A stretch of DNA of 64,000 bases, from contig DAOROA010000010.1 of NCBI GenBank assembly GCA_035441325.1, positions 7,582 to 71,581 of the forward strand, in the 5' to 3' direction. The stretch is from Candidatus Competibacter sp. (GTDB lineage: Bacteria > Pseudomonadota > Gammaproteobacteria > Competibacterales > Competibacteraceae). Under the pieces are notes generated by a model that ran no database searches, was not told the origin of the DNA, and was given only the letters and a program-made list of their open reading frames with translations. How positions within the stretch are numbered: position 1 is the first letter of the stretch; the number at the start of each line of letters is the position of its first letter. Positions 4,047-27,851 of this stretch are shown in pieces. A program made the translations under genes and the position numbers.

Positions 4047-5210
4047 ATGCGCGTCCTGCACGTCGGCAAATATTATCCGCCGTTCGCCGGGGGCATGGAG
4101 CATTTTTTGGCCGATCTGCTACCAGCGCTTCAAACGCAAGGCGTCGCCGCAGCAGCCTTGGTGCACGACGAACAGCGCGGCCGGCATGGACCGTGGCCGG
4201 CGCCATCCGATCCCTTACCCATTTACCGCGCCCCCTGTCACGGCCAGTTGCTCTATGCTCCGCTCAGTCCAGCATTTCCGTTCTGGCTCAATCGGGCGAT
4301 TCGCGAATTTCGACCCGATTTGCTCCACTTACACTTGCCCAACACCTCGGCGTTTTGGGGGCTGGCCATTCCCAGCGCCCGCCGTTTACCGTGGATCGTG
4401 CAGTGGCAATCCGATGTCGTGACATCCACGATTGACCGCCGGCTGGCGCTAGCCTATCGCTTATACCGGCCGCTGGAGCAACGGCTATTGGCCGCCAGCA
4501 GGGCGGTGATCGCCACCTCGCCGCCTTATCTGGACGCCAGCCTCGCCTTGAAGCCGTGGCGCGACCGTTGTCACGTCATCCCCCTCGGATTCGATCCGAA
4601 CCGGTTTCCCGATCCCGATCCGGCGGCGCTGGCACGGGCGGCGGCGGCATGGGGCGAAACCGCCTTCCGGATACTGGCGATCGGTCGGCTGACTTACTAC
4701 AAAGGTCACGAAGTGCTGATCCGTGCCGCCGCCAAACTGTCGGCCAGCCGCATCCTCATCGTCGGAACCGGCGACCGGCGAGAACGGTTAGCGGAACTGA
4801 TCCGGTCGATGGAACTCGATGACCGGGTCATTTTGTCCGGTTTCCAGCCCGAGGCCGATCTCGATGCTCTGCTGGCGAGTTGCGACGTGCTCTGCCTGCC
4901 ATCGCTGGAGCGCACCGAAGCCTTCGGTTTAGTGTTGCTGGAAGCGATGCGCTTCGGCAAACCGGTGGTAGTCAGCGACATTCCCGGTTCTGGTACCGGC
5001 TGGGTCGTGCGACAAGCCAACCACGGTTTGTTGACACCACCCGGCGATCCTGCAGCACTCGCCAAAGCGCTGCGCGAACTGCAACACAACCCTCTCCAGC
5101 GGCAAACGCTCGGCCGGTCCGGCGCGGCGGCGCTGCAAGACCGGTTCGGTATCGGGTCGGTCGCGGCCGCCGTGGCCGATTTATACCGGCGGGTACTCGC
5201 CGCCGGTTGA
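4047..5210 (+). CDS. family 4 (GT-B) glycosyltransferase
   Basis: ORF 3618..5210 trimmed to the ATG at 4047 (MRVLHVGKYYPPFAGGMEHF...), because the upstream part overlaps the DUF2304-like gene in another frame. The E-x7-E block EAFGLVLLEAMRFGKPVV is present. Confidence 0.85.
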   Translation: MRVLHVGKYYPPFAGGMEHFLADLLPALQTQGVAAAALVHDEQRGRHGPWPAPSDPLPIYRAPCHGQLLYAPLSPAFPFWLNRAIREFRPDLLHLHLPNTSAFWGLAIPSARRLPWIVQWQSDVVTSTIDRRLALAYRLYRPLEQRLLAASRAVIATSPPYLDASLALKPWRDRCHVIPLGFDPNRFPDPDPAALARAAAAWGETAFRILAIGRLTYYKGHEVLIRAAAKLSASRILIVGTGDRRERLAELIRSMELDDRVILSGFQPEADLDALLASCDVLCLPSLERTEAFGLVLLEAMRFGKPVVVSDIPGSGTGWVVRQANHGLLTPPGDPAALAKALRELQHNPLQRQTLGRSGAAALQDRFGIGSVAAAVADLYRRVLAAG

Positions 5211-6674
5211 GGGACCGGCTTCGCTGGGCGAATACCGGTTTTGCCGGCCGTTCTCGCAGGATGGATGCGATGGCACGAATACCATCATCACCCAGAAGAG
5301 CAACGCGGGAACAAAATGCAGGAATACCCGGTTGATGCTGGTGTACTGCTCAGCCCAACGTTGGGCGTCGGTCAAAAAGAACAACACGAACAACATCAGC
5401 AAGCAAGAGCCAACGAAAACGGCCGCAGCGCTTCGCCAACGCGCCTTCGGCAAACCGGGTACCGCCACCGCGACCGCCACCAGCGCCAGATACCAAAACA
5501 AATGCCAGTTGGCCAGCACGAAGAAATTCTTCAGCACCGGTCCCCACGTACCGCGGTAACCTAAATTAAACCGCCCTAGATAAGGCACTTCGATCAAATC
5601 CGGCCGCAGCCGGAACCATCCCCATCCTGGCAGGTTAAAGGTCACGCCACCCACCGACCACCAAACGATTCCCAGTACTACCGCTATTCCGGCCATCAGC
5701 CACAACGACCATCCGCGCAGCCAGACGACCAGCAACGCGGGAACGAACATCGACAGCCAGACCGCGCCCTCCAGCTTGATCAGCGGACACGCCAGGGCCA
5801 ACAACAACGCCAAAATGCCTTGTCGACGATCACCGTTTCGCAACCATTGAAAAAACGCGATGGCGGCCAACCCAAAGACCAAAGCCATCCACAGATCGGC
5901 ATAACCGGCCAGGGCAACATGGGTATTCAAGATCGGCAGCGACAACGACAACCACGTAAAAACCAGCGCCGTCAAGGACGCAGCGCCCCACAGCCGCGCC
6001 TGCCCGTAAAAACCAAATCCCAGCGCTAGCGCCGCTCCGAACCACGGCAGGTTGGCGGCGGTTTCGTTCCAGGCGCCGAAGGCCAGCGTCGGCCACAACG
6101 CCAGCAACGGCACCGTGGCTGGATAGGTCCAAGCCTCAATGGCGTAAACCGATCCGCTCGCGTCGGCCAACCAGCGACGAGGATCGACGAACGGCACCCA
6201 CTCCCGCAATTCCGACCAAACCCTTGGGCGGACGGTCCAAGTCGTCCACGCGTCCCACGGATATAGCGGCCGCCACCAGATTTCCTGCGCCAATCCCGCC
6301 AGCCGCCAGCCAAGCCAAGCCAACAACAACGCAAACAGCGCGCGCTGCCAAAACGGCTGCTCGCACCAACTTCGTTCCAGGCGGTTCGCGGATAAATCGA
6401 GGCGATCGACGCGACGCGCTTGCCGCCACGCCAACCACCCGCCCATCAACGCCAACGCCGCCAGCACCGACAACGGACCGATAACGCTTGGCCGAAATCC
6501 CAGCGCTGCCTGGAGGCGAAGTAACAGAGAAGCCGCTAGCGATCCCAGCAAGTAGCCATAGCCCAGCGCCAGCGGCCAAACGCCAGCCGAAGCGTCACGC
6601 CAAACTCCGCGTACCCATAAAGCGCCGGTCAGCCACGGCAAGGCTAGCGCCAATCCTACGAGCCACCACGCCAT
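5181..6674 (-). CDS. polytopic inner-membrane protein (10 or more hydrophobic spans), possible GT-C-type transferase or polymerase
   Basis: A 497-aa ORF that is almost entirely hydrophobic helices rich in W/L/A. ATG verified at 6672-6674. Its 3' end overlaps the convergent GT4 gene by 30 nt. Confidence 0.6.
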   Translation of the reverse strand: MAWWLVGLALALPWLTGALWVRGVWRDASAGVWPLALGYGYLLGSLAASLLLRLQAALGFRPSVIGPLSVLAALALMGGWLAWRQARRVDRLDLSANRLERSWCEQPFWQRALFALLLAWLGWRLAGLAQEIWWRPLYPWDAWTTWTVRPRVWSELREWVPFVDPRRWLADASGSVYAIEAWTYPATVPLLALWPTLAFGAWNETAANLPWFGAALALGFGFYGQARLWGAASLTALVFTWLSLSLPILNTHVALAGYADLWMALVFGLAAIAFFQWLRNGDRRQGILALLLALACPLIKLEGAVWLSMFVPALLVVWLRGWSLWLMAGIAVVLGIVWWSVGGVTFNLPGWGWFRLRPDLIEVPYLGRFNLGYRGTWGPVLKNFFVLANWHLFWYLALVAVAVAVPGLPKARWRSAAAVFVGSCLLMLFVLFFLTDAQRWAEQYTSINRVFLHFVPALLFWVMMVFVPSHPSCENGRQNRYSPSEAGPSTGGEYPPV

Positions 6675-6680
6675 CGCCCC

Positions 6681-7877
6681 TTACCCTCCCAGAACTCGAA
6701 GCAATACACCCCGAGCCGACGCATGGAGCATTTCTGCGGGCAACTGACCTTTCGTCCACTCCAGCATTTTGCGTTCGTGGTCGTAGCGCACTCCGGCTAG
6801 AGGCGACAAAATCAGGACGTAATCACCTTCGCGCGCCGCGTTGGCCGTCGGCGGTTGAGAAAATCCCATAAAACCGTTATGCGGCAGCAAATGATAGCGA
6901 GCGCGACCGGCCCAATAGCCGCCGGGATCGGAACTGACGACGAACAACCGGCACGGCCGTTCGGGCAACCGTCGGCGAACTTCTAGCAAGAAGCGATACA
7001 AGTCGCCATCCAAATCCGCCAGCCGCCGCTCGTCTCCTTCTTTTCCTGCGAAGCGAGCCTCGGTCTGCGCTAGCCGCCTGCTCAAATCCCATTCCCAACG
7101 CAAGTCCAGCGCCAGCCAACCCACCAAGAACAGGGCAACATATGGCCACCGTTGCTCGACAGCACGGCGCGACGATCCAAACGCCGCATACAGCGAAACG
7201 CTGAAACCAATCCAGAGCGCCACGACCAGCACCGGCGGAAACAGCGCGTTCGGCGGCGCACCGGCCGCATAATTGATAGAACGCTGGTTCCAATCTTCGA
7301 ACGTCGTCCATTCATCGACCGCCCAGCCCAGCAGTTCGGTGACGGTGGGTACCAGCGGTTGCAATTCCAGGCGGCGGATAACCAACGGCTGCCGCAGCGA
7401 GCCACTCAGGGCCAAGCCCACGACGGCGATCCGATCCTGCCAGCGCGGCTCCGCCCCCAGATCCAGCGCCCCTCCTTCCGGTCCCACCGACGGCAATACC
7501 AGTTCTTGCACAGTGCCCGGCTCAGCGAACGTGGTCCAGATCAGCCGCAATTCTTGGCCTGGATCTAACCCATCCACCTGCCAGAACAAGCGGCGATATA
7601 ACGCCGCCCGAGCCATCCGGCTCGATCCTCGCACTATCGTCAACTCCTGCGGACCCGGTTGACGGACTTCTAGGCCAGCCGGCGTTTTTTCGCCTTGGCC
7701 GCTGACCAGTTGTAGATCGTTCCCGGTCAACACCACCGGAGACGCCACGCTCGGCAATCCCCCAGCACGATAAAACAAGATCAAAATCAGCACGGTCACC
7801 ACGGCGCCGCCCACCGCCGCTAGCACAATCCCACTTATCGACCGCAGCCCATCTTTCGCATGCCACGACTCCCTCAT
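6681..7877 (-). CDS. membrane protein of unknown function (N-terminal TM, ~200-aa exported domain, 2-3 further TMs, C-terminal domain)
   Basis: ORF 6681..7925. I prefer the start at the ATG at 7875-7877 (MRESWHAK...), which forms an ATGA overlap with the stop of the upstream epimerase gene. The stop lies 6 nt before the next gene's start. Confidence 0.55.
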   Translation of the reverse strand: MRESWHAKDGLRSISGIVLAAVGGAVVTVLILILFYRAGGLPSVASPVVLTGNDLQLVSGQGEKTPAGLEVRQPGPQELTIVRGSSRMARAALYRRLFWQVDGLDPGQELRLIWTTFAEPGTVQELVLPSVGPEGGALDLGAEPRWQDRIAVVGLALSGSLRQPLVIRRLELQPLVPTVTELLGWAVDEWTTFEDWNQRSINYAAGAPPNALFPPVLVVALWIGFSVSLYAAFGSSRRAVEQRWPYVALFLVGWLALDLRWEWDLSRRLAQTEARFAGKEGDERRLADLDGDLYRFLLEVRRRLPERPCRLFVVSSDPGGYWAGRARYHLLPHNGFMGFSQPPTANAAREGDYVLILSPLAGVRYDHERKMLEWTKGQLPAEMLHASARGVLLRVLGG

Positions 7878-8881
7878 TCGCGTAATCCTTGCAGCTCGAT
7901 TTTGCAATAGCGATCCAGCGTCCAAGCAGGCTTGTATCCCAATTCGGCGCTAATTCGCCTGGAATCGTAGCAAGCCCAGCCCAGCAATTTATCCAGCGTT
8001 GCCCGAACCTTTCGATGGCGCCGGCCCGCCAGCATCAACGCGCTATCCATCAACTTGGCCACGCCGTACAGAACGTTCGCTGGTACGGTCCAGCGCGGCA
8101 CCGAAAGACCGTATGCCCGACGGGCGGTAACGTACAGCTCTCGCCCCGAGTAGGGCCGGCCATCGGTCACGAAATAGGTCTTGCCAGCGGCGGCACGGTT
8201 AGCGGCCAGCATTACCGCCAGCACTACATCGTCCACATGAACCAACGAGCGACGGTTACCCGTTTCGGGCAGAGGCGGAAACCAACCGCGCTGCGCGGCT
8301 TTGATCAGCCGCGCTAGATTCGCTTTCATGCCGGGTCCATAGACTAACGCCAGCCGTAGATTGACCGCGTGCATTCCCCGCTCGCGCCCCATCGCCAAGA
8401 CTCGCTCTTCGGCGGCACGCTTGGCTCGACCATAAGGCGTCTCGGGCGGCGCATCCCAGTTTTCGTTGACGCAGCGTGATCCGGGGTCACCCACCGCTTT
8501 GACGGTGCTGAGAAAAACGAATCTCCCGACTCCGGCAGCCACCGCCGCATCGAGTAGCCGAAAAGTTCCCTCCGCATTCACCGCCCAGTGCCGGGCAGCG
8601 AAGTCTGGAGTATCCGCCGCGTCGGCGTGAGCGAAGCCAGCGGCATGGACGACTGTGTCGATACCGCCACAAGCCCGCATCAGGCTGACGTTAGCCGCAA
8701 GATCGCCATCCACAATCTCCACGTCAGACCAATCAGTCGGTATCGTGCTGCCCGGCCGTACCAAAATCCGCAATCGCGCGCCGCGCTCCCGCAACGCGGC
8801 GACCAACCGGCGGCCGATGAAACCGGTCGCGCCGGTCACCAACACGGAACGCCCCGCATAAGAACTCTCTCCGTCGTCCAT
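7874..8881 (-). CDS. NAD-dependent sugar epimerase/dehydratase (extended SDR)
   Basis: VLVTGATGFIGRRL Rossmann motif and the YGRAK catalytic Y-x3-K. ATG verified at 8879-8881. Confidence 0.85.
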   Translation of the reverse strand: MDDGESSYAGRSVLVTGATGFIGRRLVAALRERGARLRILVRPGSTIPTDWSDVEIVDGDLAANVSLMRACGGIDTVVHAAGFAHADAADTPDFAARHWAVNAEGTFRLLDAAVAAGVGRFVFLSTVKAVGDPGSRCVNENWDAPPETPYGRAKRAAEERVLAMGRERGMHAVNLRLALVYGPGMKANLARLIKAAQRGWFPPLPETGNRRSLVHVDDVVLAVMLAANRAAAGKTYFVTDGRPYSGRELYVTARRAYGLSVPRWTVPANVLYGVAKLMDSALMLAGRRHRKVRATLDKLLGWACYDSRRISAELGYKPAWTLDRYCKIELQGLRE

Positions 8882-8903: not shown

Positions 8904-9848
8904 TCAGAAAATATCCAAGTCGCCCATCGTGTAATACAGTTCGTCTCGAACGTCGGCAGTCGGGATTTGTAGCCCCCAGACCATGTTCGTCACCACCACT
9001 TCGGTCGACTCCACCCGTTTGCCAGCCGCTTCGCGCCAGCCGCCCGGCAACCAGATATCCACTTCGCCGACACCTTCCGAAGCCGCGATCCGATCCAGCG
9101 CCGCCAGCGCCAATCGCAACCAGCGACGAGGCGCCAGCAAATCGACGATCAACAATCGCTCGTGATCGGACCGCACTACCGCCCAACCGAACAGTCGCGT
9201 GCCCCAATACAGACCCAGCAACCGGTAAGCATGGAAAGGGTTCGCGGCATAACGCCAGCGCAGATAGTCGCCGTCGCGGATCAGCGCCAACCGGAAGCCG
9301 GGCGCCAGCCGCATCCACAAGCCATTCAGCCGCGCATCGTTCCAATCCAGCGCGCGGACGCCGAGCAACGGCAGCAAATTACGACGCGCTGGCCGATGAA
9401 CGACGCGCGCCCGTTCCACTTCTCCGTACACTCGCGTGCGTTCGCCGAGCCGGTACGGCCGCTGGCCCGGAAAGCCGTAGGCGAAGGCGTCCGGCCAACG
9501 TTCGGCCACACCACCCAGCAACCCGCGAACCAGCCGAGCAAACAGATTCCGGTCGCCCAATCCACCACGCGCATCCGGATGGACCATTACGTCGCAAATC
9601 TGGAAAAAAGGAAGTGGCCGGCCTCGTCGCCAACCGCGTAATGGAATTGCGCCAGCGTGCCCGGCCAGCCGTCCCGAAGCGTCAAACGCCAATCGCAGCG
9701 GTGGTATCGAACCATCGGCCACGTATTTCCACCGCCACTGATTCTCGGTCAGCCGCTTGCCGAACACTTGGTCGAACAAGCCGACAATCGCTTGTTCGTC
9801 GCCGGGTCGATAATCCCGGATATGGTAATCTTCGTTTTTTATTTTCAT
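8904..9848 (-). CDS. GNAT-family N-acetyltransferase with long C-terminal domain
   Basis: ORF 8904..9971 trimmed to the ATG at 9846-9848 (MKIKNEDYHIRDYRPGDEQAIVGLFDQVFG...). This is a GNAT-like N-terminal half with QICDVMVHPDARGGLG in the acetyl-CoA pocket region. Confidence 0.7.
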   Translation of the reverse strand: MKIKNEDYHIRDYRPGDEQAIVGLFDQVFGKRLTENQWRWKYVADGSIPPLRLAFDASGRLAGHAGAIPLRGWRRGRPLPFFQICDVMVHPDARGGLGDRNLFARLVRGLLGGVAERWPDAFAYGFPGQRPYRLGERTRVYGEVERARVVHRPARRNLLPLLGVRALDWNDARLNGLWMRLAPGFRLALIRDGDYLRWRYAANPFHAYRLLGLYWGTRLFGWAVVRSDHERLLIVDLLAPRRWLRLALAALDRIAASEGVGEVDIWLPGGWREAAGKRVESTEVVVTNMVWGLQIPTADVRDELYYTMGDLDIF

Positions 9849-9895
9849 GCCCGGTTGGCCCGTGCCATGACGCATGGTTACGCCGGTAAGCTGGA

Positions 9896-10891
9896 ATGAG
9901 CATCGAAAGCGAATTGATACCGTACCATGCCGTGCGCGTGCTGGGAACCGGACCGGTTCTGGTGCTAGCACCGCATCCCGACGACGAAATCTTCGGTTGT
10001 GGGGGCGCCATCATGCGCCATGTCGCCGCAGGCGATCCGGTCGCCGTCATCGTTTTGACCGACGGTGGTGGAGCGTGGGGCGACGGCCCGGAGCGAGAAG
10101 CTTACGTAGCGCAGCGGCGCGAGGAAAGCCGTGCGGCCGCCAACGTCTTGGGTTACGGAGAACCGGAGTTTTGGGAATACCGGGATCGGGAATTGTGCTG
10201 CGACGAACCATTGATACGGCGCTTGCTCGCCATCGCAACCGAATTTCGCTGGCTGTACGCACCCTCGCCCTACGAAATCCACCCCGACCATCGCGCCCTC
10301 GGATTGGCGGCATTGGAGGCCATCCGCCGCTCGAACGCAGCGGTCAGCCTGGCGTTCTACGAAATCGGTGCGCCGCTACCGCCCAACCGCCTTTTGGACA
10401 TTTCCGATCTGTTGGATCGAAAACGTCGCGCGATTGCCTGTTTCACCGGCCAATTGGCCGCCCAAGCCTACGACCGACACGTCGAGGCGCTCAACCGCTA
10501 CCGCACCTACACCCTCCCGCGCGAGGTAGAAGCGGCAGAAGCCTATTGGGTCGTTAGCCGGGACGAGGCGGAGCAAGAACGGTCGATCCTTCGTGCGACC
10601 CTCGCCAGACAGCGGCAACCTTCTGGGTGGCCGGAACCGCTTCCGATGTCCGAACCGATCAAATCGCCAATCGATCTTCATCTCGAAAACGACGATCTTC
10701 GACAACAACTGGAGCACGCGCGCACGCGCGCTAGAGAGTTGCAAATCCAACTGGAAAACGAGCATCGGGAATGGCAACTTCGCCTCGATCAGCTAACCTC
10801 TTCGCGCTCCTGGCGTCTGACCGCACCGCTGCGGATCGCCGCGAACTGGCTGCGGACGCGGCATGACCGGCATCTTGGCCGCTGCCGTTAA
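9896..10891 (+). CDS. PIG-L/LmbE-family N-acetylglucosaminyl deacetylase with C-terminal coiled coil
   Basis: VLAPHPDDEIFGCGG zinc-site motif and HPDH. The C-terminal ~70 aa are heptad-rich and end in SWRLTAPLR (10808-10834). Confidence 0.8.
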   Translation: MSIESELIPYHAVRVLGTGPVLVLAPHPDDEIFGCGGAIMRHVAAGDPVAVIVLTDGGGAWGDGPEREAYVAQRREESRAAANVLGYGEPEFWEYRDRELCCDEPLIRRLLAIATEFRWLYAPSPYEIHPDHRALGLAALEAIRRSNAAVSLAFYEIGAPLPPNRLLDISDLLDRKRRAIACFTGQLAAQAYDRHVEALNRYRTYTLPREVEAAEAYWVVSRDEAEQERSILRATLARQRQPSGWPEPLPMSEPIKSPIDLHLENDDLRQQLEHARTRARELQIQLENEHREWQLRLDQLTSSRSWRLTAPLRIAANWLRTRHDRHLGRCR

Positions 10892-11732
10892 AGACACGTC
10901 TAGGGGCGGCGTGAACGGGCTCGGTATCGCCATAGTCACCTACGCACCGGATTTGCCGGTACTGACCGAAACGTTGGACCGGCTTGGGCAAGCGTTGGCT
11001 CATGCCCGCCGACAAAATCGGCTGGCCGACGCCCGGTTGATTCTGGTGGATAATGGCCCTGGTCCGACGTGGAAAAACTCGTTGCAGCCCATCCTGGATG
11101 CGGCAGCGTTGCCGGCAACCGTCGAACTCCTGAGCGGTCACGGCAATATTGGCTACGGCGCCGCGCACAACTTGGCGTTGAGCCGGCACGATCTGGAATT
11201 TCACCTGATTCTGAATCCCGACGCGTTGTTGGATGAAGATGCCCTAAGCGAAGGCTTGGCGTTTCTGGCCGCCCACCCCGAAGCCGGACTGCTGGCGCCC
11301 GCGGTTTGGGGTCCGGATGGCCAACGCCAATACCTTTGCAAAGCTTATCCGACGGCGCTGGATCTAGCTCTGCGGGGATTTGCGCCGATTTGGTTGAAGC
11401 GATTATTTCGCGCGAGGTTAGAGCACTACGAGCTGCGCGACCGGATCGGTGAGACGGTATACTGGGATCCGCCGCTGATTAGCGGCTGTTTCATGCTGGC
11501 CCGGCGCGATCCCTTGGTTCGCGCGAAGGGCTTCCATCGAGATTATTTTTTGTATTTCGAGGATTACGATCTCAGCCTGCGGTTGGCCGAACACGCCCGT
11601 TTGGTCTTCGTGCCCGCAGTGCGCATCGTCCATCTGGGTGGTCATGCCGCTCGCAAGGGATTCCGCCATATCTTTTTATTTTTGTGCTCGGCCGCATCCT
11701 TCTTCAACCGGCATGGCTGGCGGTGGTGGTAG
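10863..11732 (+). CDS. family 2 glycosyltransferase (rhamnosyltransferase-like)
   Basis: GIAIVTYAPD...LILVDNGPG...GNIGYGAAHN is a typical GT2 pattern. The ATG at 10863 overlaps the previous gene by 29 nt. A GTG at 10911 with AGGGG upstream is an alternative start. Confidence 0.75.
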   Translation: MTGILAAAVKDTSRGGVNGLGIAIVTYAPDLPVLTETLDRLGQALAHARRQNRLADARLILVDNGPGPTWKNSLQPILDAAALPATVELLSGHGNIGYGAAHNLALSRHDLEFHLILNPDALLDEDALSEGLAFLAAHPEAGLLAPAVWGPDGQRQYLCKAYPTALDLALRGFAPIWLKRLFRARLEHYELRDRIGETVYWDPPLISGCFMLARRDPLVRAKGFHRDYFLYFEDYDLSLRLAEHARLVFVPAVRIVHLGGHAARKGFRHIFLFLCSAASFFNRHGWRWW

Positions 11733-11795
11733 TTCCGCGCTGGCTTAAAGCCTCCATCAATTTTTTAGCTTCACGATCAAAGCCGGAGTCACGCA

Positions 11796-12938
11796 TTGTT
11801 GGCCGGAATTGCTTCCTCTCATTTGCCCGCCCCCATCGAGAACGATTCGGTAGATCAACCTCTCGTTAGCATCATCATCCGCAGCATGGCGCGATCTTCT
11901 CTCGCCGAAGCGCTCGATAGCATCGCCGCGCAAACCTATCCTCGCATCGAAGCAGTGGTAGTCGATGCCTACGGACTCGGCCATCCGCCGCCCGGCGAGA
12001 GCTGCGGACGCTTTCCGCTGCGCTTTGTAGTGCATGGCAAGCCGCTAGACCGCAGCGCCGCCGCCAATGCCGGGTTAACGGCCGCATACGGCTATTACGT
12101 TGGCTTTCTGGACGATGACGATATGTTGCTTCCCCAACACGTATCGGTACTGGTCGAGGCTTTACGGCGGCAACGAACAGCGCGCGTGGCTTACAGCGGC
12201 GTGCGGATGATCGCCTATCGGCCCGACGGCAGCGTCGGGTTAGACGTTCCGCTCAATCGACCTTTCCATCTGCCGAGCCTGCGCGCCCAGAACTACATCC
12301 CAATGCATGCGGTACTGTTCGAACGCGAGCTAGCGGAAGCAGGATGCCGGTTCGACGAAGAGTTAGCGTTGTACGAAGACTGGGATTTTTGGTTGCAACT
12401 GGCCCAACGCAGCGAATTCCTGCACGTCGATCAAATCACCGCCTGCTACCGCAATTTCGGCCATTCCGGTTTCGGTCTACAGGCCGACGCCACTAAAATC
12501 GCTGCAGGACGCGCCGCGCTGTTCGATAAATGGCGAACCATTTGGTCCGGAGCGGAGTTAAGCGAAGCACTGGCCGCGTTGCGCGATGGCATCATCCACA
12601 AGCAACCCTGCGACCGCACGCCGGAATCTTCGGCACTCGAATCGATCAACGCGCAATTAGCCGCGCAAAGCGCCTTGATCGAACAACTGCGAGCGCGGCT
12701 GGAAAGCGATTGGCGCGACCGGGGGGTAGCCGACGATTACCGGCGCCGCGCCGACGAACTGTTGGAGACGGTAGCGAACCTGCAAGACCAGCTAGCCGAA
12801 CAATCCCGGCAACTCGCAGAAGTCTATCGGTCCAGCTCCTGGCGGATTACTCGGCCGCTGCGCGGACTGGCGCGCGCCATGCGGCGATTGTTGAATTCAG
12901 CACCGCTACGATCCTCTTATCCTGGCAAACCGCGCTAG
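11796..12938 (+). CDS. family 2 glycosyltransferase with C-terminal coiled coil
   Basis: VSIIIRSMARSSLAEALDSIAAQTYP...GFLDDDD are GT2 blocks. The only upstream in-frame start is a TTG at 11796, so the 5' end is uncertain. The C-terminus has heptad repeats and SWRITRPLR (12837-12863). Confidence 0.75.
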   Translation: MLAGIASSHLPAPIENDSVDQPLVSIIIRSMARSSLAEALDSIAAQTYPRIEAVVVDAYGLGHPPPGESCGRFPLRFVVHGKPLDRSAAANAGLTAAYGYYVGFLDDDDMLLPQHVSVLVEALRRQRTARVAYSGVRMIAYRPDGSVGLDVPLNRPFHLPSLRAQNYIPMHAVLFERELAEAGCRFDEELALYEDWDFWLQLAQRSEFLHVDQITACYRNFGHSGFGLQADATKIAAGRAALFDKWRTIWSGAELSEALAALRDGIIHKQPCDRTPESSALESINAQLAAQSALIEQLRARLESDWRDRGVADDYRRRADELLETVANLQDQLAEQSRQLAEVYRSSSWRITRPLRGLARAMRRLLNSAPLRSSYPGKPR

Positions 12939-13889
12939 CACCACCGAATTTCGGGCCATCGTACGGCGGATATCGCCATCGTTCGCGCGTCGTTGTTTCT
13001 GAATCTGCCGCCGTTGCCGCCAGATTTGCGGAAGCCCCCGCAGCGCATCCCATTTGGCTCGCAGCACGACACTGCCTTGGCCGCGCAGCGTAAACCAGAT
13101 CACCGACCCCAGATTCAACAGTAAATGCTGCGGTAGATACAGCCAAAACAACGGAGCGGGCATGTTCTTGCACCAAGTCCAAACTAGGTTGCGATGGCCG
13201 TGGTAGATCGAAAACGGGCTGCGCTTGCCGGTTACCGCCGAACCGACATGCCGAACCACGGCATCGGGTACGTAGCGGCAACCATAACCGAGCAAACGCA
13301 ACCTAAATCCCAGATCGACATCCTCGAAATAACAAAAATAACTTTCGTCGAACCCGCCCGCTTCACAAAACGCTTCGCGGCGATAGAGAGCCGCCGCCGC
13401 GCAGGACGCGAAGATTTCGCCGGCCTCGCTCGTCCCCGAGGCAATCGGTCGGCCATGATCGCGCCGCCACGCCAGTCCGCTGGCATGATAAACGTCACCC
13501 GTGCCGTCTAGCCGGCCAGGATCGCCGGCATCTACCAGACGGGCACCGAAGCTGGCGCATTCGGGATGCGCTTGCGCCGCTGCCAACAACCGTTCCAGCC
13601 AATCCGGTTCCGGAAAAGCATCGGGATTGAGCAACGCTAACCATTCAACTTCGCCCGCTCGCCGCACCGCCACATTGTTCGCCGCCGCAAATCCCAGGTT
13701 ACGATCCAGCCGGACGACTTCAATCTCGGGATAATCGTTCTCCAACCGGTCGGCCGAACCATCGCGACTGGCGTTGTCCACCACGATAACTCGTTCTGGA
13801 CGCCGCGTTTGGACGCGTAAATGGCGCAAACACTCGCCCAACAGCATTCCGCCGTTGAAATTGACGATGACCACCGCGATCCTAGCCAT
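12906..13889 (-). CDS. family 2 glycosyltransferase (rhamnosyltransferase-like)
   Basis: ORF 12906..13949 trimmed to the ATG at 13887-13889 (MARIAVVIVNFNGGMLLGECL...VIVVDNASRDGS...FCYFEDVDL). Its 3' end overlaps the convergent GT2 gene by 33 nt. Confidence 0.8.
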   Translation of the reverse strand: MARIAVVIVNFNGGMLLGECLRHLRVQTRRPERVIVVDNASRDGSADRLENDYPEIEVVRLDRNLGFAAANNVAVRRAGEVEWLALLNPDAFPEPDWLERLLAAAQAHPECASFGARLVDAGDPGRLDGTGDVYHASGLAWRRDHGRPIASGTSEAGEIFASCAAAALYRREAFCEAGGFDESYFCYFEDVDLGFRLRLLGYGCRYVPDAVVRHVGSAVTGKRSPFSIYHGHRNLVWTWCKNMPAPLFWLYLPQHLLLNLGSVIWFTLRGQGSVVLRAKWDALRGLPQIWRQRRQIQKQRRANDGDIRRTMARNSVVLARFARIRGS

Positions 13890-14051
13890 GCCATCACATT
13901 CTACGTACCGGCGAGCGGTTGACGTTTTTGCGCACCGCGACAATTGCATCGACGTTATCGACTCCCGGCCCTAGCAGACAACCAACGGTACGAGATCGAT
14001 GCTCATCACTAATCAAGCCCGTCCTTTCAGGCTCTCGACCATCGCCTCAAT

Positions 14052-16490
14052 TTAGTTAAGTATTGTTGGTAATCGGGCACTTCGAAGTCGCCGATACTGG
14101 CGACTCAACCAGCGCACTGGCCGAGTCAGCCACCAAGAGGTGGATGAATAGATTTCTCGGATAACCTGTTTTCGGTCTTCCAACTGCCTTTGCAGTTCCT
14201 CATTATACTGCCTAACCTTCTCATTATTTTGACACTGCTCCGCAAGGCGTTGCTCCAATTGAACCAGCGCTTGCTCTTTGTTAACCAGCGCTTGTTCTCT
14301 ATCAGCCAATTGCTCACTTAAGGCGTTCTGCTTTGCCAATAAAGCATTCCACCAAGTTTCTACCACCAACCAAGTTAACGGCCGATCAGCAGGCGGTTGA
14401 ACTAGATTTTTAATAATTTCAATCAATCGATCACGCCCCAAATTATCGATTATCGAATCCGTCAATTCGGGATAAATATACTCGGACTTAATTAACTTAT
14501 CGAGATTAACCTGATCGAATGCACTGCCAAGAATGCTTTGACTAACGCCAGTCGAGTACCGCTCTAAGTAAGCGTGAGGAATCAAGCGCCACAAAGGTAG
14601 TTTGGATTTTTCTGCTTCGGGTAGCGCCCTAGTCACGATATCAAGTAACTGGTTATTGACCGTTTGCGCCGGAGTGTCCCATTCGATCAAGTAAGCCTTC
14701 GAGTAATCGCTTAGCCGTTCGACAAAGGCGCCAAATCTAGGTGCCAGAATAGGCAAACCTGAATCTAATGCAGCGCTCAAAGTATAAGAGTAAGTTTCTG
14801 GCCATTGTGCTGGGAAATAGATTACATCCGCCTGTTCAAAAGCGATAAGCGTAGATAAATCCTTATCTGCATAAGGCCCGCTAAAAAAAATCGGTAACTC
14901 GGGCTCGGCACCGCCCAGTATACCCATCGGGAGTTTTTCGTAGGAGCGAAATCCCAATACTCGAAAAGAAAGCGGTAAATGTCTTTTTTTAGCATCTTTT
15001 GCACAAGCTTCTAATTGCCTTCCACCTTTCGCAGGAGACATCATTCCCAACACCAGCACTTTAGCTGTCTTCAACTCTGGATGAGATAAATGTACAAAAT
15101 TTGCGTCAGGAATATACTTTTTAATACGGTCGATTACATCTTGCGATGGGCCAATGACTCGTTCTGCGGCTGCTAGCAAATTATGAAAATAGCTGCGCCA
15201 AGCCGTAATATCGAGCCGCCATTGGGGAGGGCGCTCTTCAAGGCATTTATTACAGCCGCTCGCTTCTGGTTCACCACAGTAACGCCCATCTGGCATGGTC
15301 AAATTAAATTGCGGACAAACTGGAAAATAATCATGTAAAGTATAATCGTATGGTACCCGTAATTTTTGCGGCAGGGAGGCTATAAGAGGATGATGGCCAA
15401 TCAGATGGTGAAAATGCACTCGCACCACCCCTATTTCCTCAAGAAGGCAGACCAAATCATCAAAATTTGTCGGGATGAAGAAATAAAACTTCAACTCCTC
15501 ATCCGTTCTAGCCCACTCCAAGATTACCTTGGTCCCTTCGTATGGCTTCAAAATTAATATTTCAAATTGCGATTCAAGCAAATACGCCAGCTCTTGGACA
15601 TGTTTATCGGTACCACCACCCAAGCAATGGTGGATAAATAATAAGCGTGGCTTGTTGGAGCGCCGAAGCCGCATAAAATCGATGCACCGACGCAACTGTC
15701 GTGCTGGATCGACTGCTACATGAGATGCTATTTGCTGATCGTAAGCAGGATAAAGAGCGCGTAATCGCTCCATAGATTTTTGCATTAACGAGTCGCTTTC
15801 TGCTCCAAAAGATACTGCACCTTGATGGTAGACAAAAACATCACCACATAACAAATGCTTGAAACCCAATCCGCTAGCTCGCAAACAGAAATCATTCTCC
15901 TCGCCGTAACCACGGCCGAACCGTTGAGCGTCGAAATAACCAACTTGCTCGATACATCGTCGCGTGATATACATACAAAAACCGATCGCCGTAGGGATTT
16001 CCACGTAGCGCTGGGTATTTGTTACGGCAAATAATCCATCTAATTCAGCAAGCTTATCTTCGGCGGGAAAAAATAAATTATCCTGGCAAAAACATGGATA
16101 GCTACAAATAGTAGCATTGTTGGAAAATGGCGTTGCCGTGCCGACTAACGAATCACTATAAGCACAGCGACGCAATCGATCCAACCAATCACCATGAACT
16201 TCGGTATCGCTGTTAAGCAACACCACATCGCGATCTGGATGCAAAACCATCCCACGATTGGCGGCATTGACAAAACCCAAGTTGATCGGGTTTACCAGTA
16301 AGGTGATGGCACCAACGCTATCTGCCAACTCGCGGAGCCAAGCAGAAAGATCTGCTTCGGGACTACAGTCATCGATCACCACGATCTCGTGCGTAGTTCG
16401 CTGCGGAAATGCCAGCACGCTCTCCAGACAGCGCCGGGTAACAGCCACGTCTTTAAAAACAGGGATAACGATATCAACTTCAATCGACAA
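14052..16490 (-). CDS. 812-aa two-domain glycosyltransferase (N-terminal GT2, C-terminal GT-B/GT4-like) with C-terminal coiled coil
   Basis: VDIVIPVFKD...VVIDDCSPE...LLNSDTEV (GT2). A later block, YFPAQWPETYSYTLSAALDSGLPILAP, is an E-x7-E-like GT-B block. A heptad-rich tail ends in SWWLTRPVR (14112-14138). The start codon is a TTG (16488-16490). GC is about 32-50% in sampled lines versus about 68% next door. Confidence 0.8.
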   Translation of the reverse strand: MSIEVDIVIPVFKDVAVTRRCLESVLAFPQRTTHEIVVIDDCSPEADLSAWLRELADSVGAITLLVNPINLGFVNAANRGMVLHPDRDVVLLNSDTEVHGDWLDRLRRCAYSDSLVGTATPFSNNATICSYPCFCQDNLFFPAEDKLAELDGLFAVTNTQRYVEIPTAIGFCMYITRRCIEQVGYFDAQRFGRGYGEENDFCLRASGLGFKHLLCGDVFVYHQGAVSFGAESDSLMQKSMERLRALYPAYDQQIASHVAVDPARQLRRCIDFMRLRRSNKPRLLFIHHCLGGGTDKHVQELAYLLESQFEILILKPYEGTKVILEWARTDEELKFYFFIPTNFDDLVCLLEEIGVVRVHFHHLIGHHPLIASLPQKLRVPYDYTLHDYFPVCPQFNLTMPDGRYCGEPEASGCNKCLEERPPQWRLDITAWRSYFHNLLAAAERVIGPSQDVIDRIKKYIPDANFVHLSHPELKTAKVLVLGMMSPAKGGRQLEACAKDAKKRHLPLSFRVLGFRSYEKLPMGILGGAEPELPIFFSGPYADKDLSTLIAFEQADVIYFPAQWPETYSYTLSAALDSGLPILAPRFGAFVERLSDYSKAYLIEWDTPAQTVNNQLLDIVTRALPEAEKSKLPLWRLIPHAYLERYSTGVSQSILGSAFDQVNLDKLIKSEYIYPELTDSIIDNLGRDRLIEIIKNLVQPPADRPLTWLVVETWWNALLAKQNALSEQLADREQALVNKEQALVQLEQRLAEQCQNNEKVRQYNEELQRQLEDRKQVIREIYSSTSWWLTRPVRWLSRQYRRLRSARLPTILN

Positions 16491-16669: not shown

Positions 16670-17836
16670 TCAACTCAACTCCCAACGATTTTCCAAATAA
16701 CAAACCCCAAGTTCCCGAGAGTCCTTGAGTACTTCCAGATCGGGCAATACTTTTTCGTGATAAACCATTAGACCCTGATCGTCGAACACGCGCGCATGGG
16801 CAGTATAGAGACCACCGAGCAACGGCACGCTGGGATATGTAATCAAAACTTCCCGCCGCCGACCGCACAGTGGCGGCCGACCGGATAAGTGGGTACCGGT
16901 GACGTATACGCCACGACCGTCGTCCATTTTGATCGACAGGGTCAGGTGAAACGGTAAATCATCGTGAGCGCTTTCCAAGCGTAACCGGAATCGTAAATCG
17001 TCCCCGCGTCGGCAAGGTAGCTCGCTTAGCAGCTCCAAGCTAACGATACGCACCGGTGTCTCGGATCGGGCGCCAGCTTCGGCTTGCTCGCGACGAGTAT
17101 TACGCTGCGCCTGCCAAGCTTCGTAAGCGGGAATCACGCGGGCCGTTTCGCCATGCAGACGAATTCGGCCACCTTCCAGCCAGAGCGTTTCGTCGCAAAA
17201 CATGCTGACTTGATACACGCTATGAGAGCAAAAGATGATGGTGCGACCGCGATTTCTGAACTCCATCATCCGGTCGATGCACTTTTTTTGGAAGTACGCA
17301 TCACCTACCGATAGCGCCTCGTCCACGATCAAGATATCCGGATCCAGCGAAGCGATCAGCGAAAAAGCCAGCCGCATTCGCATGCCGGTAGAATAGGTCT
17401 TCAGCGGCCGATCAACGAACGATTCGAGCTCGGCGAAGGCAACGATTTCGTCGAGCCTGGATTGGATCAACTGCCGCGGTAGCCCCAATACATCCCCGTA
17501 AAGAAAGATGTTCTGGCGACCAGTGAACTCGGGATGAAATCCAACACCGAGCTCTAGCAACCCCAAAACCGAACCGTCGCGCTCGATAGTCCCTTGCGTG
17601 GGCGTCAGCGTGCCGGCGATGAGTTGCAGCAGGGTACTCTTGCCGGCACCGTTATTGCCGATCACTCCCAAAGTTTGGCCGTGGGCCAATTCGAAATTGA
17701 CGTTCCATAACGCCACGAAGTCGCTGTGGCGCGGCCGTCGAAACAGCAGTTCCTTAAGTCGATCAATGGGCTGATCGTACAATCGGTAAACTTTGCTCAG
17801 ACCGTTAACGCGTAAAGCCGGCTTGGCATCGTTCAT
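16670..17836 (-). CDS. wzt: polysaccharide ABC exporter ATP-binding protein (Wzt/TagH type) with C-terminal extension
   Basis: Walker A GNNGAGKST, signature YSTGMRMRL, Walker B ILIVDEAL, plus a ~140-aa C-terminal domain as in O-antigen Wzt proteins. ATGA overlap with the upstream GT4 gene. Confidence 0.9.
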   Translation of the reverse strand: MNDAKPALRVNGLSKVYRLYDQPIDRLKELLFRRPRHSDFVALWNVNFELAHGQTLGVIGNNGAGKSTLLQLIAGTLTPTQGTIERDGSVLGLLELGVGFHPEFTGRQNIFLYGDVLGLPRQLIQSRLDEIVAFAELESFVDRPLKTYSTGMRMRLAFSLIASLDPDILIVDEALSVGDAYFQKKCIDRMMEFRNRGRTIIFCSHSVYQVSMFCDETLWLEGGRIRLHGETARVIPAYEAWQAQRNTRREQAEAGARSETPVRIVSLELLSELPCRRGDDLRFRLRLESAHDDLPFHLTLSIKMDDGRGVYVTGTHLSGRPPLCGRRREVLITYPSVPLLGGLYTAHARVFDDQGLMVYHEKVLPDLEVLKDSRELGVCYLENRWELS

Positions 17837-19017: not shown

Positions 19018-19812
19018 CTACAACACGTCCGCAAAACCGGGTTCCAGTCGGCGAAACACGTAGATGCCGACCGCCAGAGCACCGACCGCAAACAACACGA
19101 GCCCGACCAGTATCAACGGTTCCGGCCAGGCACTCGCCAATACCGCACCGTGATACGCTTCGGCAAAAGCCGTGAAGGGATTAAGGTGAATCAAGTTCCG
19201 AAATTCGGTCGGTACCGATGTCAGCGGATAAAGTATCGGGGCGGTATAGAACATGGTCGCCAGTACCAATCCAAGCACTTGCAAGGTATCGCGCAGATAA
19301 ACGGCGAAGGCCGCTAGTGCCAGCCCGAGTCCGGCTGTTACCGCAAACTGCAAAGCCAATAGGGCGATTACGGCGCCCACCACGCTCAGCGGCAACCCAC
19401 CCCGCCACAGGGCAAAAACGATTAGAAATACGGCGTAGCTCAGTCCATGTACCACGAAGGCGGCGGCGGCGGCGGCCAGCGGAAAAACTTGGACCGGGAA
19501 ATGTACTTTGCGAACCATATCACGGCGACCGACGATACCACCCGCCGCACGGCTGAGTCCCTCCTGAAAGGCGAACCACGGTAGCAACACCGATAGCAGG
19601 AAAACGATGAACGGCGTATCCGCCAGCGCCGAACCTTCCGGAAATCGAGCGCGTAGAACCGCTGCGAACACCCACCAGTACAGCAGGATGAACAGCAATG
19701 GTTGCAGGACGCTCCACAATACGCCTAGAAAAGAGCCGGCGTACTGCTCCCGTAACTCCCGGCCGACGAAAGGCCAGAATAACCGTGAAACGCGTAGAAG
19801 CCGCTTGGGCAC
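19018..19812 (-). CDS. wzm: ABC-2 type polysaccharide exporter permease
   Basis: A six-helix ABC-2 pattern with N-terminal RELREQYAGSFLGVLWSVLQP. GTG start (19810-19812). Confidence 0.8.
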   Translation of the reverse strand: MPKRLLRVSRLFWPFVGRELREQYAGSFLGVLWSVLQPLLFILLYWWVFAAVLRARFPEGSALADTPFIVFLLSVLLPWFAFQEGLSRAAGGIVGRRDMVRKVHFPVQVFPLAAAAAAFVVHGLSYAVFLIVFALWRGGLPLSVVGAVIALLALQFAVTAGLGLALAAFAVYLRDTLQVLGLVLATMFYTAPILYPLTSVPTEFRNLIHLNPFTAFAEAYHGAVLASAWPEPLILVGLVLFAVGALAVGIYVFRRLEPGFADVL

Positions 19813-23308: not shown

Positions 23309-25498
23309 TCACGAACCGACGACCCAAAGTGGACGCGCTGGCTGGCGCGTTCGGCGTTCTCGCCACAGCATTTCGTAAGCATGTTCCAAGTGCCGCACGT
23401 AACGCTCGGTATCGAATAGCGTGCACACCAAGCGGTTGGTGTGCAGGCGCTCGCGCAATTCGGCCAGCCTCGGCCGATCCTTGGCTAATGCCACCGCCAA
23501 CGCCTCATAATCCGCCATCGTATAAGTCACCAGCTCCGGCAAGCCTATCGCATGCAGCACGCTAGCGCAAACTCTGGCTTGAAAAGTACGCCCGCAAAGA
23601 GTTAGCACCGGCAACCCTACCCAGAGTGCATCGCTTGCAGTGGTATGAGCATTGACGACGAACGTATCCAGATACAGATCCGCCAGCCGCTGCCGTTCCA
23701 GATGTTCTGGCTTCGGTAATCGCGTCGCGAAAAACAAACGCTCCGGGTCGATGCCCCGCTCGCTAGCCGCTCGACGTAAATAGTAGATCATCCGCTGACC
23801 ATCCGCCAACAACCAGAGCACGCTCCCCGGGGTTTGTTCGAGGATTTTCATCCAACTGGCAAACGTTGACGGCTCGATCTTGTAACCGGTATTGAACGAA
23901 GCATAAACGAAAGCCTCGTCCGGCAAGCCTTGATCGGCGCGAGTCGTACCCGTGTTGGCTATCGGTTGTTCATCGTCGTTGATCTGGTAACAATCCGGCA
24001 AATAGACCGGCTGCTCGCTGAAACAGGTTTGCAGATCCTCTGGTAGCACCACCTCGTCGGCAATAACATGAGAAATGTAATCGCCGCCAAGCGTACCGGG
24101 ATATCCCAGAAAACTCACTTGCACCGGCGCGGGCCGCAGCGCAAAGATTTCCTGCCGGCCGTACTTGGTATAACCGTGCAGGTCCACCAGAATATGCACG
24201 CCGTCGGCCGCGATGCGTCGGGCGGCCTCGCAATTCGACGACTGGCTCAGATCCACCATCCGGTCGCAGGTGCGGCTAATATCGCGCCAATAAACGCTCT
24301 CGTCACCAGGCCGCAACGTATAACCGATGATCTCGAATCGATGGCGATCATGGGCGCGAAACAATTTGCGCGCCAAATGGGCAGTGGCGTGATCGCGGAA
24401 ATCGCCCGATACATAACCGATCCGCAACCGTCCATCCGCCGCTGGCTCGGCATGAACGAGAGTCAATTGCCGGCGTAACGGCGTCGCGAATTTTTCCATG
24501 ATCTCGGCACGGGCCTTGGCGGTCTTCAATAAAAATTCCGGCGCTAGCGGCAAGTGCAACAAGCGATGTTGCTCTGTACCCACCACCCGGCCATACCGCC
24601 AAATTTCGCCGATCAGCCCATCGAGCCGCGCCAGAGTAGCCTCGTAATCGCGCCAATCGCACTCCGCTAGCGCATTGAAAAAACTATATAAATACAGGCC
24701 ACGCGCCGTATAGCGCTTCGGCAGGAAGTCATCGAACGGCATCCAGTGGGACAGATCTTCGCCAAAAGCTAGGCCAAGCCGCTGCCAGTCGTGGCGGACA
24801 TGCAGCTCATTCAGAATCGACTCGGCCTCCTCGAAACGCTCCAGCGCCGCCAACGCCCAAGCTTTGTTCGCCAATGCTCCCAAGTTCAATTCGGGAATCG
24901 TGGCCACTTGCTCCAAACCCGGCAAGGCTTCTTCCCAACGCCGCAACTTGATGAAAATCGAAGATCGAAGCAACGTTAGCTGCGAATCATCGGGCGCCAG
25001 CCGCAACGCTTGGTCGACCGCCACTAACGCCGGCTCATATGCCTGCTGCCGCACTAGCAGCACCGCCTGATGGCTCAAAGCGTGCAGGCGTTGCGACGCC
25101 GACAAACCCGATAAATCGAGCGCTCGTTCGTAAGCGGCCAACGCTCCGGCTAGACGCCCCAACAACCGTAACGCATCCGCCCGGAGCAGCAGGCCATCGC
25201 AATCGTCGGGCTGGATCGCCAAGGCCCGTTCTACCGCCGACAGCGCCGGCTCGAATCGATCCGACGCCAAACAGATCGTGGCGTAATCGAGCAGTAGCGA
25301 AGGATCTTCAGGCTGCAACACCAATGCCCGATCAAGGGCGATCAACGATTGTTCGGCTTCGCCCAACTCCCAGCAGGTGTTTCCCAATTTACGCCAAATG
25401 CTCGCATCGTCGGGTCGGGTCTGGCCGAGCTGCTCGCAGCGCGCCTTTTCCTGCTTCAGCCACGCGCGGCGCAGCGCAGCTCGTGCATCCGGTTGCAT
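23309..25498 (-). CDS. TPR-repeat protein fused to a GT41 (O-GlcNAc transferase / SPINDLY-like) domain
   Basis: The N-terminal ~330 aa are TPR-like helical repeats. The C-terminal half (RIGYVSGDFRDHATAHL...VSFLGYPGTLG...FNTGYKI...HTTASDALWVGLPVLT) matches the bacterial OGT-like/COG3914 pattern. Confidence 0.8.
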   Translation of the reverse strand: MQPDARAALRRAWLKQEKARCEQLGQTRPDDASIWRKLGNTCWELGEAEQSLIALDRALVLQPEDPSLLLDYATICLASDRFEPALSAVERALAIQPDDCDGLLLRADALRLLGRLAGALAAYERALDLSGLSASQRLHALSHQAVLLVRQQAYEPALVAVDQALRLAPDDSQLTLLRSSIFIKLRRWEEALPGLEQVATIPELNLGALANKAWALAALERFEEAESILNELHVRHDWQRLGLAFGEDLSHWMPFDDFLPKRYTARGLYLYSFFNALAECDWRDYEATLARLDGLIGEIWRYGRVVGTEQHRLLHLPLAPEFLLKTAKARAEIMEKFATPLRRQLTLVHAEPAADGRLRIGYVSGDFRDHATAHLARKLFRAHDRHRFEIIGYTLRPGDESVYWRDISRTCDRMVDLSQSSNCEAARRIAADGVHILVDLHGYTKYGRQEIFALRPAPVQVSFLGYPGTLGGDYISHVIADEVVLPEDLQTCFSEQPVYLPDCYQINDDEQPIANTGTTRADQGLPDEAFVYASFNTGYKIEPSTFASWMKILEQTPGSVLWLLADGQRMIYYLRRAASERGIDPERLFFATRLPKPEHLERQRLADLYLDTFVVNAHTTASDALWVGLPVLTLCGRTFQARVCASVLHAIGLPELVTYTMADYEALAVALAKDRPRLAELRERLHTNRLVCTLFDTERYVRHLEHAYEMLWRERRTRQPARPLWVVGS

Positions 25499-27844: not shown

Positions 27845-27851
27845 GCATTCA

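Follow-up and report, generated by a model that had tools for sequence, protein, structure and literature searches.

Coiled-coil rulers are an accepted marker of chain-length control in ATP-binding cassette (ABC) transporter-dependent glycan synthesis, and so far they have been recognised by generic coiled-coil prediction. WbdD joins an N-terminal methyltransferase-kinase to a trimeric coiled-coil ruler and a C-terminal region (PMC3482155, PMC5082667). The C-terminus contains a membrane-locating amphipathic helix (PMC3447403, PMC11231755), and the C-terminal region as a whole is reported to provide both a membrane helix and a site for polymerase recruitment (PMC11231755, PMC3482155). In the WbbB and ORF6-O7 layout the terminator is membrane-distal and the polymerase membrane-proximal (PMC11231755). 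A short C-terminal amphipathic helix, as found in WrtF of Rhizobium tropici, is an accepted membrane device for O-polysaccharide glycosyltransferases (PMC12595478). Here we describe three sugar-modifying enzymes encoded in a 64,000-nucleotide stretch of a Candidatus Competibacter sp. genome (assembly GCA_035441325.1, contig DAOROA010000010.1, positions 7,582 to 71,581 of the forward strand; hereafter the window), each of which ends in a coiled-coil stalk, a short near-invariant motif and a basic helix. The WbdD-type coiled-coil ruler with a membrane-binding C-terminus is already known. What is new is an undescribed signature that defines a WbdD-type stalk family. This locus has three copies of it, distributed over the parts of a putatively split assembly line, and one of them belongs to a PIG-L deacetylase.

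The tailed enzymes are a PIG-L family deacetylase, a GT2 glycosyltransferase of 380 residues (GT2-380) and an 812-residue protein with GT2 and GT4 modules. Helix predictions for the last two were made with AlphaFold2 (AF2). The enzymes and the parts of their tails are as follows.

9896..10891, plus strand: PIG-L family deacetylase with tail (331 residues; catalytic domain at residues 22-143; Pfam PF02585, E 3e-25).
10670..10801, plus strand: coiled-coil stalk of the PIG-L protein (about residues 259-302; heptads read from the sequence).
10802..10834, plus strand: PIG-L foot motif S303-R-S-W-R-L-T-A-P-L-R313 (regular expression; invariant positions agree with the family logo).
10835..10888, plus strand: PIG-L basic C-terminal helix IAANWLRTRHDRHLGRCR, weakly amphipathic.
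11796..12938, plus strand: GT2 glycosyltransferase with tail, GT2-380 (380 residues; Pfam PF00535, E 9e-13).
12621..12824, plus strand: coiled-coil stalk of GT2-380 (residues ~276-343, with one short break).
12831..12863, plus strand: GT2-380 foot motif S346-S-S-W-R-I-T-R-P-L-R356 (regular expression and family logo).
12864..12935, plus strand: GT2-380 cationic amphipathic helix GLARAMRRLLNS, then a short Pro/Ser-rich end (hydrophobic moment up to 0.99, charge +5 to +6).
14052..16490, minus strand: two-module GT2 plus GT4 (GT-B) glycosyltransferase with tail (812 residues; Pfam PF00535, PF13439 and PF00534).
14145..14378, minus strand: coiled-coil stalk of the 812-residue protein (residues ~705-782, a single 78-residue helix; AF2).
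14112..14144, minus strand: foot motif of the 812-residue protein S783-T-S-W-W-L-T-R-P-V-R793 (regular expression; predicted helix break at S783).
14055..14111, minus strand: cationic amphipathic helix of the 812-residue protein WLSRQYRRLRSARLPTILN (hydrophobic moment 0.84, charge +6 to +7; AF2 helix, tail residues 87-109).

A six-frame scan of the window (127,996 residues) with S-W-[RW]-[LI]-T-x-P-[LV]-R returned three matches and no others, at 10808-10834 (plus), 12837-12863 (plus) and 14112-14138 (minus). The analytic expectation by chance was 2.7e-4, and there were no matches across 300 shuffles. Each match lies in a long open reading frame (ORF) with a clear catalytic domain, and the stop codon follows 18-24 residues past the motif. 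Alignment of the tails extended the conserved core to S-x-S-W-[RW]-[LI]-T-x-P-[LV]-R, followed by a conserved Arg. The helices before the motif measure ~44 (PIG-L), ~65 (GT2-380) and ~78 residues (812-residue protein), and the segments after it are strongly basic in all three. A hidden Markov model (HMM) of the module, built from 36 instances, scored the window tails at 53-83 bits (53 for PIG-L residues ~259-329, 83 for GT2-380) and found no fourth copy in the window. A preliminary description of this stretch had proposed three enzymes with a common C-terminal coil, motif and basic tail; all three of its motif coordinates were exact. It had also called the catalytic domains unrelated, which holds for PIG-L against both of the others, whereas the GT2 domains of GT2-380 and the 812-residue protein are distantly related.

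The tail-coding DNAs of the three genes have no meaningful similarity. Between positions 14001 and 16000 the GC content falls to 45%, compared with ~60% in the flanks. Because this drop coincides with the gene for the 812-residue protein (14052-16490, minus strand), it suggests that the gene was acquired separately, by horizontal transfer. The unlike DNAs and the low-GC island together show a likeness kept at the protein level and not a recent copy. At its 3' end the PIG-L gene shares 29 nucleotides (10863-10891, in its last nine codons) with the next GT2 gene, which starts at 10863; a GNAT gene (8904-9971) lies beside the PIG-L gene. GT2-380 (plus) and a further GT2 gene, GT2-347 (minus), are convergent, their 3' ends overlapping by 33 nucleotides (12906-12938).

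With a 36-sequence alignment the tail of the 812-residue protein was modelled at a predicted local distance difference test score (pLDDT) of 93, as a 78-residue helix over tail residues 8-85, one non-helical residue at the first invariant Ser, and a further helix of 23 residues that spans the motif and the basic segment. The position of this break fits the role of Ser as a classic N-cap residue of helices. For GT2-380, a single-sequence prediction placed helices at residues 276-308 and 312-343 with limits that are approximate (pLDDT 41).

The module extends far beyond this locus. A profile made from the three window tails and two small matches was used in an exhaustive HMMER search of 1.84 billion proteins and matched 2,469 clusters (50% identity) at E<=1e-3. 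A word-indexed homology search with the three-tail profile, a query too short for the word index, had given four candidates and two matches. Scanning 185,579 species genomes with a degenerate pattern produced more than 599 matches; among the matches listed, 19 loci were confirmed by tblastn, in Actinomycetes, Planctomycetota and Alpha-, Beta- and Gammaproteobacteria. The 81 matches of at least 200 residues have no Pfam family in common, and their Pfam partners almost all build or modify glycans: GT2 (27/81), GT4-type (~14), S-adenosylmethionine-dependent methyltransferases (~13), sulfotransferases (5), WbsX (4), FkbM (3), RgpF (2) and PIG-L (1). The idea of a portable module, put forward in the preliminary description, is thus upheld, since the same unit is joined to domains of all these kinds, and the wider motif search it had proposed turned up glycan enzymes almost throughout instead of a similar frequency in unrelated proteins.

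The word tail suits the window proteins but not the family. Among the same 81 proteins the motif is C-terminal in 41, internal in 22 and within 130 residues of the N-terminus in 18, so that about half of the larger members do not end in it. Two or three tandem copies occur in about one-third of the 150 best-matching proteins. Proteins with an internal motif begin with a methyltransferase, a sulfotransferase or DUF4915, followed by coil and motif and then glycosyltransferase modules. This arrangement is that of WbbB and ORF6-O7, and it puts the internal copy at the place expected for the foot of a ruler. Many with a C-terminal motif consist of a GT2 domain, coil and motif in ~350-430 residues; GT4 and sulfotransferase versions and a second PIG-L version (P0059) also occur. 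Each of the three window architectures recurs in other proteins.

Tandem coil-plus-motif units were seen in P0005, P0006, P0009, P0020 and ~45 two-copy proteins, and in one of the genome loci (L013, 5781-6035); the copies are ~45-120 residues apart, some with Pro-rich linkers. Stand-alone proteins of 70-100 residues (P0001-P0004, P0016, P0023, P0028, P0034, P0054, P0065 and others) comprise coil and motif alone and could be free scaffold or adaptor subunits. An upstream ALEE..ERN.LW.EL is common to many of them, and the P0001 gene is flanked by an ORF exceeding 1,673 residues and a methyltransferase gene.

No existing model or description of the module was found. Pfam and NCBIfam gave the tails spurious coiled-coil matches, all below cutoffs; Pfam has no model of the module; a profile search of the PDB yielded no matching chain; and Foldseek found no PDB matches for the tail model, as expected for two helices. 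The literal motif strings were absent from the 8.3 million papers of open literature searched and from the supplement of PMC11231755. The absence of a functional description, noted at the outset, was confirmed for these sources, and the module is a very widespread, previously uncatalogued and undescribed signature.

We analysed the module in 202 motif copies from the best 150 of the 2,469 matches, a choice by which the logo overstates conservation. Counting positions from the Trp, hydrophobic residues at -20, -16, -13, -9 and -6 form a 4-3 heptad stripe, which returns at +2, +6, +9, +13 and +16 with a one-residue shift. Three preferences arose independently of the search pattern: Ser at -3 (100%) and -1 (98%), and Arg/Lys at +1 (90%). 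The Trp itself and the Thr (+3), Pro (+5) and Arg (+7) are near-invariant too, but the pattern used for collection had constrained these positions. Arg and Lys dominate at +11, +14, +15 and +17. Acidic residues, which make up 20-35% at many stalk positions, fall to <=3% per position from -6 to +18, except for a 12% peak at +11. Over the 14 residues from +5 the mean hydrophobic moment is 0.56, compared with 0.34 for the same segments shuffled (p 1e-45), and the net charge is +3.3, compared with +0.1 for random segments. The amphipathic membrane anchor suggested in the preliminary description agrees with these in silico values, and with the strong amphipathicity of the GT2-380 and 812-residue tails (moment 0.84-0.99), but less well with the weakly amphipathic PIG-L tail. 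For 99 of the 202 instances, no more than 30 residues separate the motif from the end of the protein.

WbdD encoded in the E. coli HS O9 locus carries S-R-S-W-R-M-T-K-G-Y-R at residues 592-602, directly after ...LRQEIEKIHR. Residues ~535-612 were matched by the 36-instance HMM, which does not include WbdD, with 35 bits (E 1e-9), the sole match among all ORFs of the 50-kb E. coli HS locus. Judged by this match, WbdD is a degenerate member of the module family, and the window tails are homologous to the junction of its coiled coil and C-terminal region. By the published order of regions and the placement at 592-602, the WbdD motif sits where the ruler meets the membrane-binding part, with region limits taken from secondary descriptions. 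The link to the WbdD and WbbB coiled coils, which had been drawn in general terms, is in this respect stronger than was claimed. No mention of a motif at the ruler/membrane junction of WbdD was found in the literature searched, and a search for O8-type WbdD returned another O9-family allele and nothing else.

Related genomes carry the parts of the window system in single chains. Among 80 genome loci encoding a GT2-380 homologue, 63 carry the motif within the homologue's own ORF, internally in 47 and C-terminally in 16, and PIG-L is fused N-terminally in 45 of these 63 ORFs. The nearest relatives of GT2-380 are in Candidatus Contendobacter and Competibacter genomes (56-68% identity). Layouts mapped by Pfam and BLAST include the following.

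Acidovorax, Nitrosomonas and Competibacteraceae (L080, L067, L034, L049): PIG-L, GT2, coil, motif, GT2, GT2; ~1,230-1,320 residues.
Nitrosomonas (L029): GT2 (380-like), coil, motif, GT2, GT4 (812-like); 1,088 residues.
Contendobacter (L026): 812-like, coil, motif, GT2, GT4; 1,657 residues.
Competibacter (L024): PIG-L, GT2, coil, motif; 607 residues.

The Contendobacter homologue is 45% identical to the 812-residue protein and continues beyond the motif into a further GT2-GT4 pair. The window PIG-L protein shares 73% identity over residues 1-237 with the PIG-L domain of the 1279-residue L049 fusion, and 47% identity in its tail with the coil and motif of that fusion; it looks like a derivative of an L049-type fusion from which the intervening GT2 was lost. 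Fusions that include PIG-L (L024, L032, L034, L049, L067 and L080) may add a terminal amino sugar and then remove its N-acetyl group. The domains are usually covalently linked elsewhere, and here they are separate but each tailed; this is indirect evidence that the three window enzymes would act together, and likewise indirect support for the single complex suggested in the preliminary description.

The three tailed genes lie within a ~23-kb glycan locus that also contains five more GT2/GT4 genes, an epimerase, a GNAT acetyltransferase, a TPR-GT41 protein and the two components of an ABC exporter.

16670..17836, minus strand: Wzt-type ABC transporter ATPase with an extra C-terminal domain (PF00005, E 1e-21).
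19018..19812, minus strand: Wzm-type ABC-2 permease (PF01061, E 3e-16).

At 388 residues the Wzt protein is longer than a bare nucleotide-binding domain. Its match to Wzt_C is weak (E 0.005) and below cutoff, and the extra domain hints at a carbohydrate-binding module, by which export would depend on terminal modification. Two locus ORFs, of 497 residues (5181-6674, minus) and 414 residues (6681-7925, minus), had no Pfam match. The former has many long hydrophobic stretches by eye, which suggests a multi-spanning membrane protein. Beyond the locus, the window encodes a TPR + GT41 (O-GlcNAc-transferase-like) protein at the locus edge, a downstream secretin and PilN-like gene, and a more distant 2,038-residue ORF (23309-25498, 25526-27964, 29105-30193 and 45741-51857).

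We consider that each tail is a copy of a widespread stalk-and-foot module of cytoplasmic enzymes that build lipid-linked glycans for Wzm/Wzt export, and put the probability of this reading at roughly 0.6. The heptad helix would oligomerise as a parallel coiled coil, like the WbdD trimer. The invariant S-x-S-W-R-h-T-x-P-h-R (h, hydrophobic) would end the stalk, break the helix at its first Ser and begin a short cationic amphipathic helix that lacks acidic residues, and the several such helices of an oligomer would rest against the anionic inner leaflet. In this way the module would multimerise the enzyme and set its catalytic domain at a fixed height over the membrane, beside the undecaprenyl-linked substrate and the transporter. 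A WbbB-like assembly line would here be split into three polypeptides that each keep stalk and foot; a shared place at the membrane, and perhaps also a mixed coiled coil, would stand in for covalent linkage. Oligomerisation, membrane binding, complex formation and any effect on chain length are inferred.

Several points weigh against this reading. Both the oligomeric state and membrane binding are extrapolated from WbdD, and the basic tail of the PIG-L protein is weakly amphipathic, with a hydrophobic moment of 0.15-0.37. The two Ser, the Trp, Thr, Pro and Arg of the motif are near-invariant across phyla, in a logo that overstates conservation, and generic membrane-binding amphipathic helices are usually not sequence-conserved; this hints at a partner more specific than bulk lipid, such as the transporter, a polymerase or the pyrophosphate-lipid. 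The polymerase-like GT2-GT4 part of the 812-residue protein would, in the model, sit at the far end of a ~11 nm stalk, the reverse of the published geometry (PMC11231755). Finally, the triple tail arrangement is not conserved: most close relatives (L022-L030) have one motif-bearing ORF within 10 kb, and two were found in L005, L013, L026 and L065 alone.

Such conservation is one argument for a different role, in which the motif is mainly a protein docking site at the stalk base that recruits polymerase glycosyltransferases or Wzm/Wzt and is not lipid-binding. Very high conservation over Actinomycetes, Planctomycetota and three classes of Proteobacteria (Alpha-, Beta- and Gammaproteobacteria) is unusual for a plain anchor. 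WbdD, whose C-terminal region is reported to combine membrane helix and recruitment site (PMC11231755, PMC3482155), recruits WbdA membrane-proximally, and Wzm/Wzt are frequent in motif loci. However, a Wzm and Wzt pair lies within 10 kb in only 8 of the 19 pattern-derived loci (several of them short contigs) and in 22 of the 80 GT2-380-homologue loci. The motif is also kept in all-in-one proteins to which the polymerase is covalently attached, it occurs in two or three tandem copies, the partner glycosyltransferase families vary widely, and the segment that follows is cationic and amphipathic, as contact with lipid predicts. Docking as the main function is thus unlikely, though it deserves some weight. 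Equally speculative is a bolder combination, in which the motif would be a specific recognition element at every ruler base, for the pyrophosphate-lipid end of the undecaprenyl-linked glycan or for Wzm/Wzt, and the three tails would form one mixed coil that holds their enzymes at ~6, 10 and 11 nm on the same growing chain.

Such a mixed coil can also be considered by itself. The three tails would pair mutually as, for example, a heterotrimeric parallel coiled coil and so rebuild the single-chain PIG-L-GT2-coil-GT line. The same domains form one chain in 45 of the 80 related loci, the WbdD coiled coil is a trimer (PMC3482155, PMC5082667), the locus has exactly three tail-bearing proteins, and the last ~20 stalk residues and the motif share a common register across them. 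Yet the stalks are unequal (~44, 65 and 78 residues), and we found no sequence feature favouring hetero- over homo-pairing. Most loci encode a single tail-bearing protein, so homo-oligomers must be the norm, and the gene for the 812-residue protein was apparently acquired separately. Hetero-assembly of the three tails is accordingly rather doubtful.

It is less probable still that the motif is a structural cap or stutter that ends or registers the coiled coil, with no role in membrane binding or docking and with any membrane association arising elsewhere. A hydrophobic 3-4 stripe that carries on past the motif after shifting phase by one residue, an AF2 break of a single residue, and the much longer hydrophobic region after the WbdD motif all agree with a cap. 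What it leaves unexplained is the near-exclusion of acidic residues and the enrichment of Arg and Lys over ~24 residues at and past the motif, since like charges in a parallel bundle are unfavourable without anionic lipid; and in the nearly half of instances whose motif is followed by at most 30 residues, no other anchor is possible. Chance, low-complexity sequence and a recent event in the DNA of the locus, by duplication or gene conversion, were rejected as sources of the shared ending, given the expectation of 2.7e-4 and the empty shuffles, tail-coding DNAs without meaningful similarity, the unlike base composition of the genes and thousands of homologous modules elsewhere.

Ruler-type proteins could be found and oriented in genomes by so sharp a signature at the stalk's membrane end, which WbdD shares with over 2,400 clusters and which would predict the membrane-distal and the membrane-proximal domain. 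The invariant Ser, Trp, Arg, Thr and Pro are targets for mutagenesis in the well-developed WbdD system. The locus itself is a natural experiment: with a normally fused line in three pieces, it asks whether co-anchoring or a mixed coil can replace fusion.

Short C-terminal amphipathic membrane-targeting helices are also found in MinD and FtsA, and membrane binding of MinD depends on dimerisation (avidity). Like WrtF, MinD and FtsA, the window proteins are cytoplasmic enzymes that would act at the membrane and that end in a short cationic or amphipathic helix, and the coiled coil of the window tails is proposed to provide the avidity that MinD gains by dimerisation. The helices of WrtF, MinD and FtsA have no conserved signature and are not preceded by a coiled coil, in contrast to the 11-residue near-invariant motif before the helix of the window tails, and unlike them the stalk-and-foot unit can be internal or tandemly repeated.

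WbbB (K. pneumoniae O12 and Raoultella terrigena) and ORF6 (K. pneumoniae O7) are single chains of terminator, coiled coil and polymerase glycosyltransferase modules. Their layout is matched by the fused homologues of the window enzymes, a likeness drawn from the published layouts; by this analogy the motif of the fused homologues would mark the membrane-proximal end of the stalk. In contrast, the window encodes these parts as distinct polypeptides, all three equipped with a stalk and foot. WbdD (E. coli O9/O9a, K. pneumoniae O3) shares with the window tails a motif at the junction of stalk and membrane region. It differs in having Gly-Tyr instead of Pro-Leu in the motif, a stalk about twice as long, and ~105 residues after the motif that include a long hydrophobic amphipathic stretch, compared with 18-24 residues in the window tails. 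For catalysis it has methyltransferase and kinase domains, and the distal domains of the window proteins are PIG-L, GT2 and GT2-GT4. Whereas the known systems have one coiled-coil protein per locus (PMC11231755), this locus has three stalk-bearing proteins.

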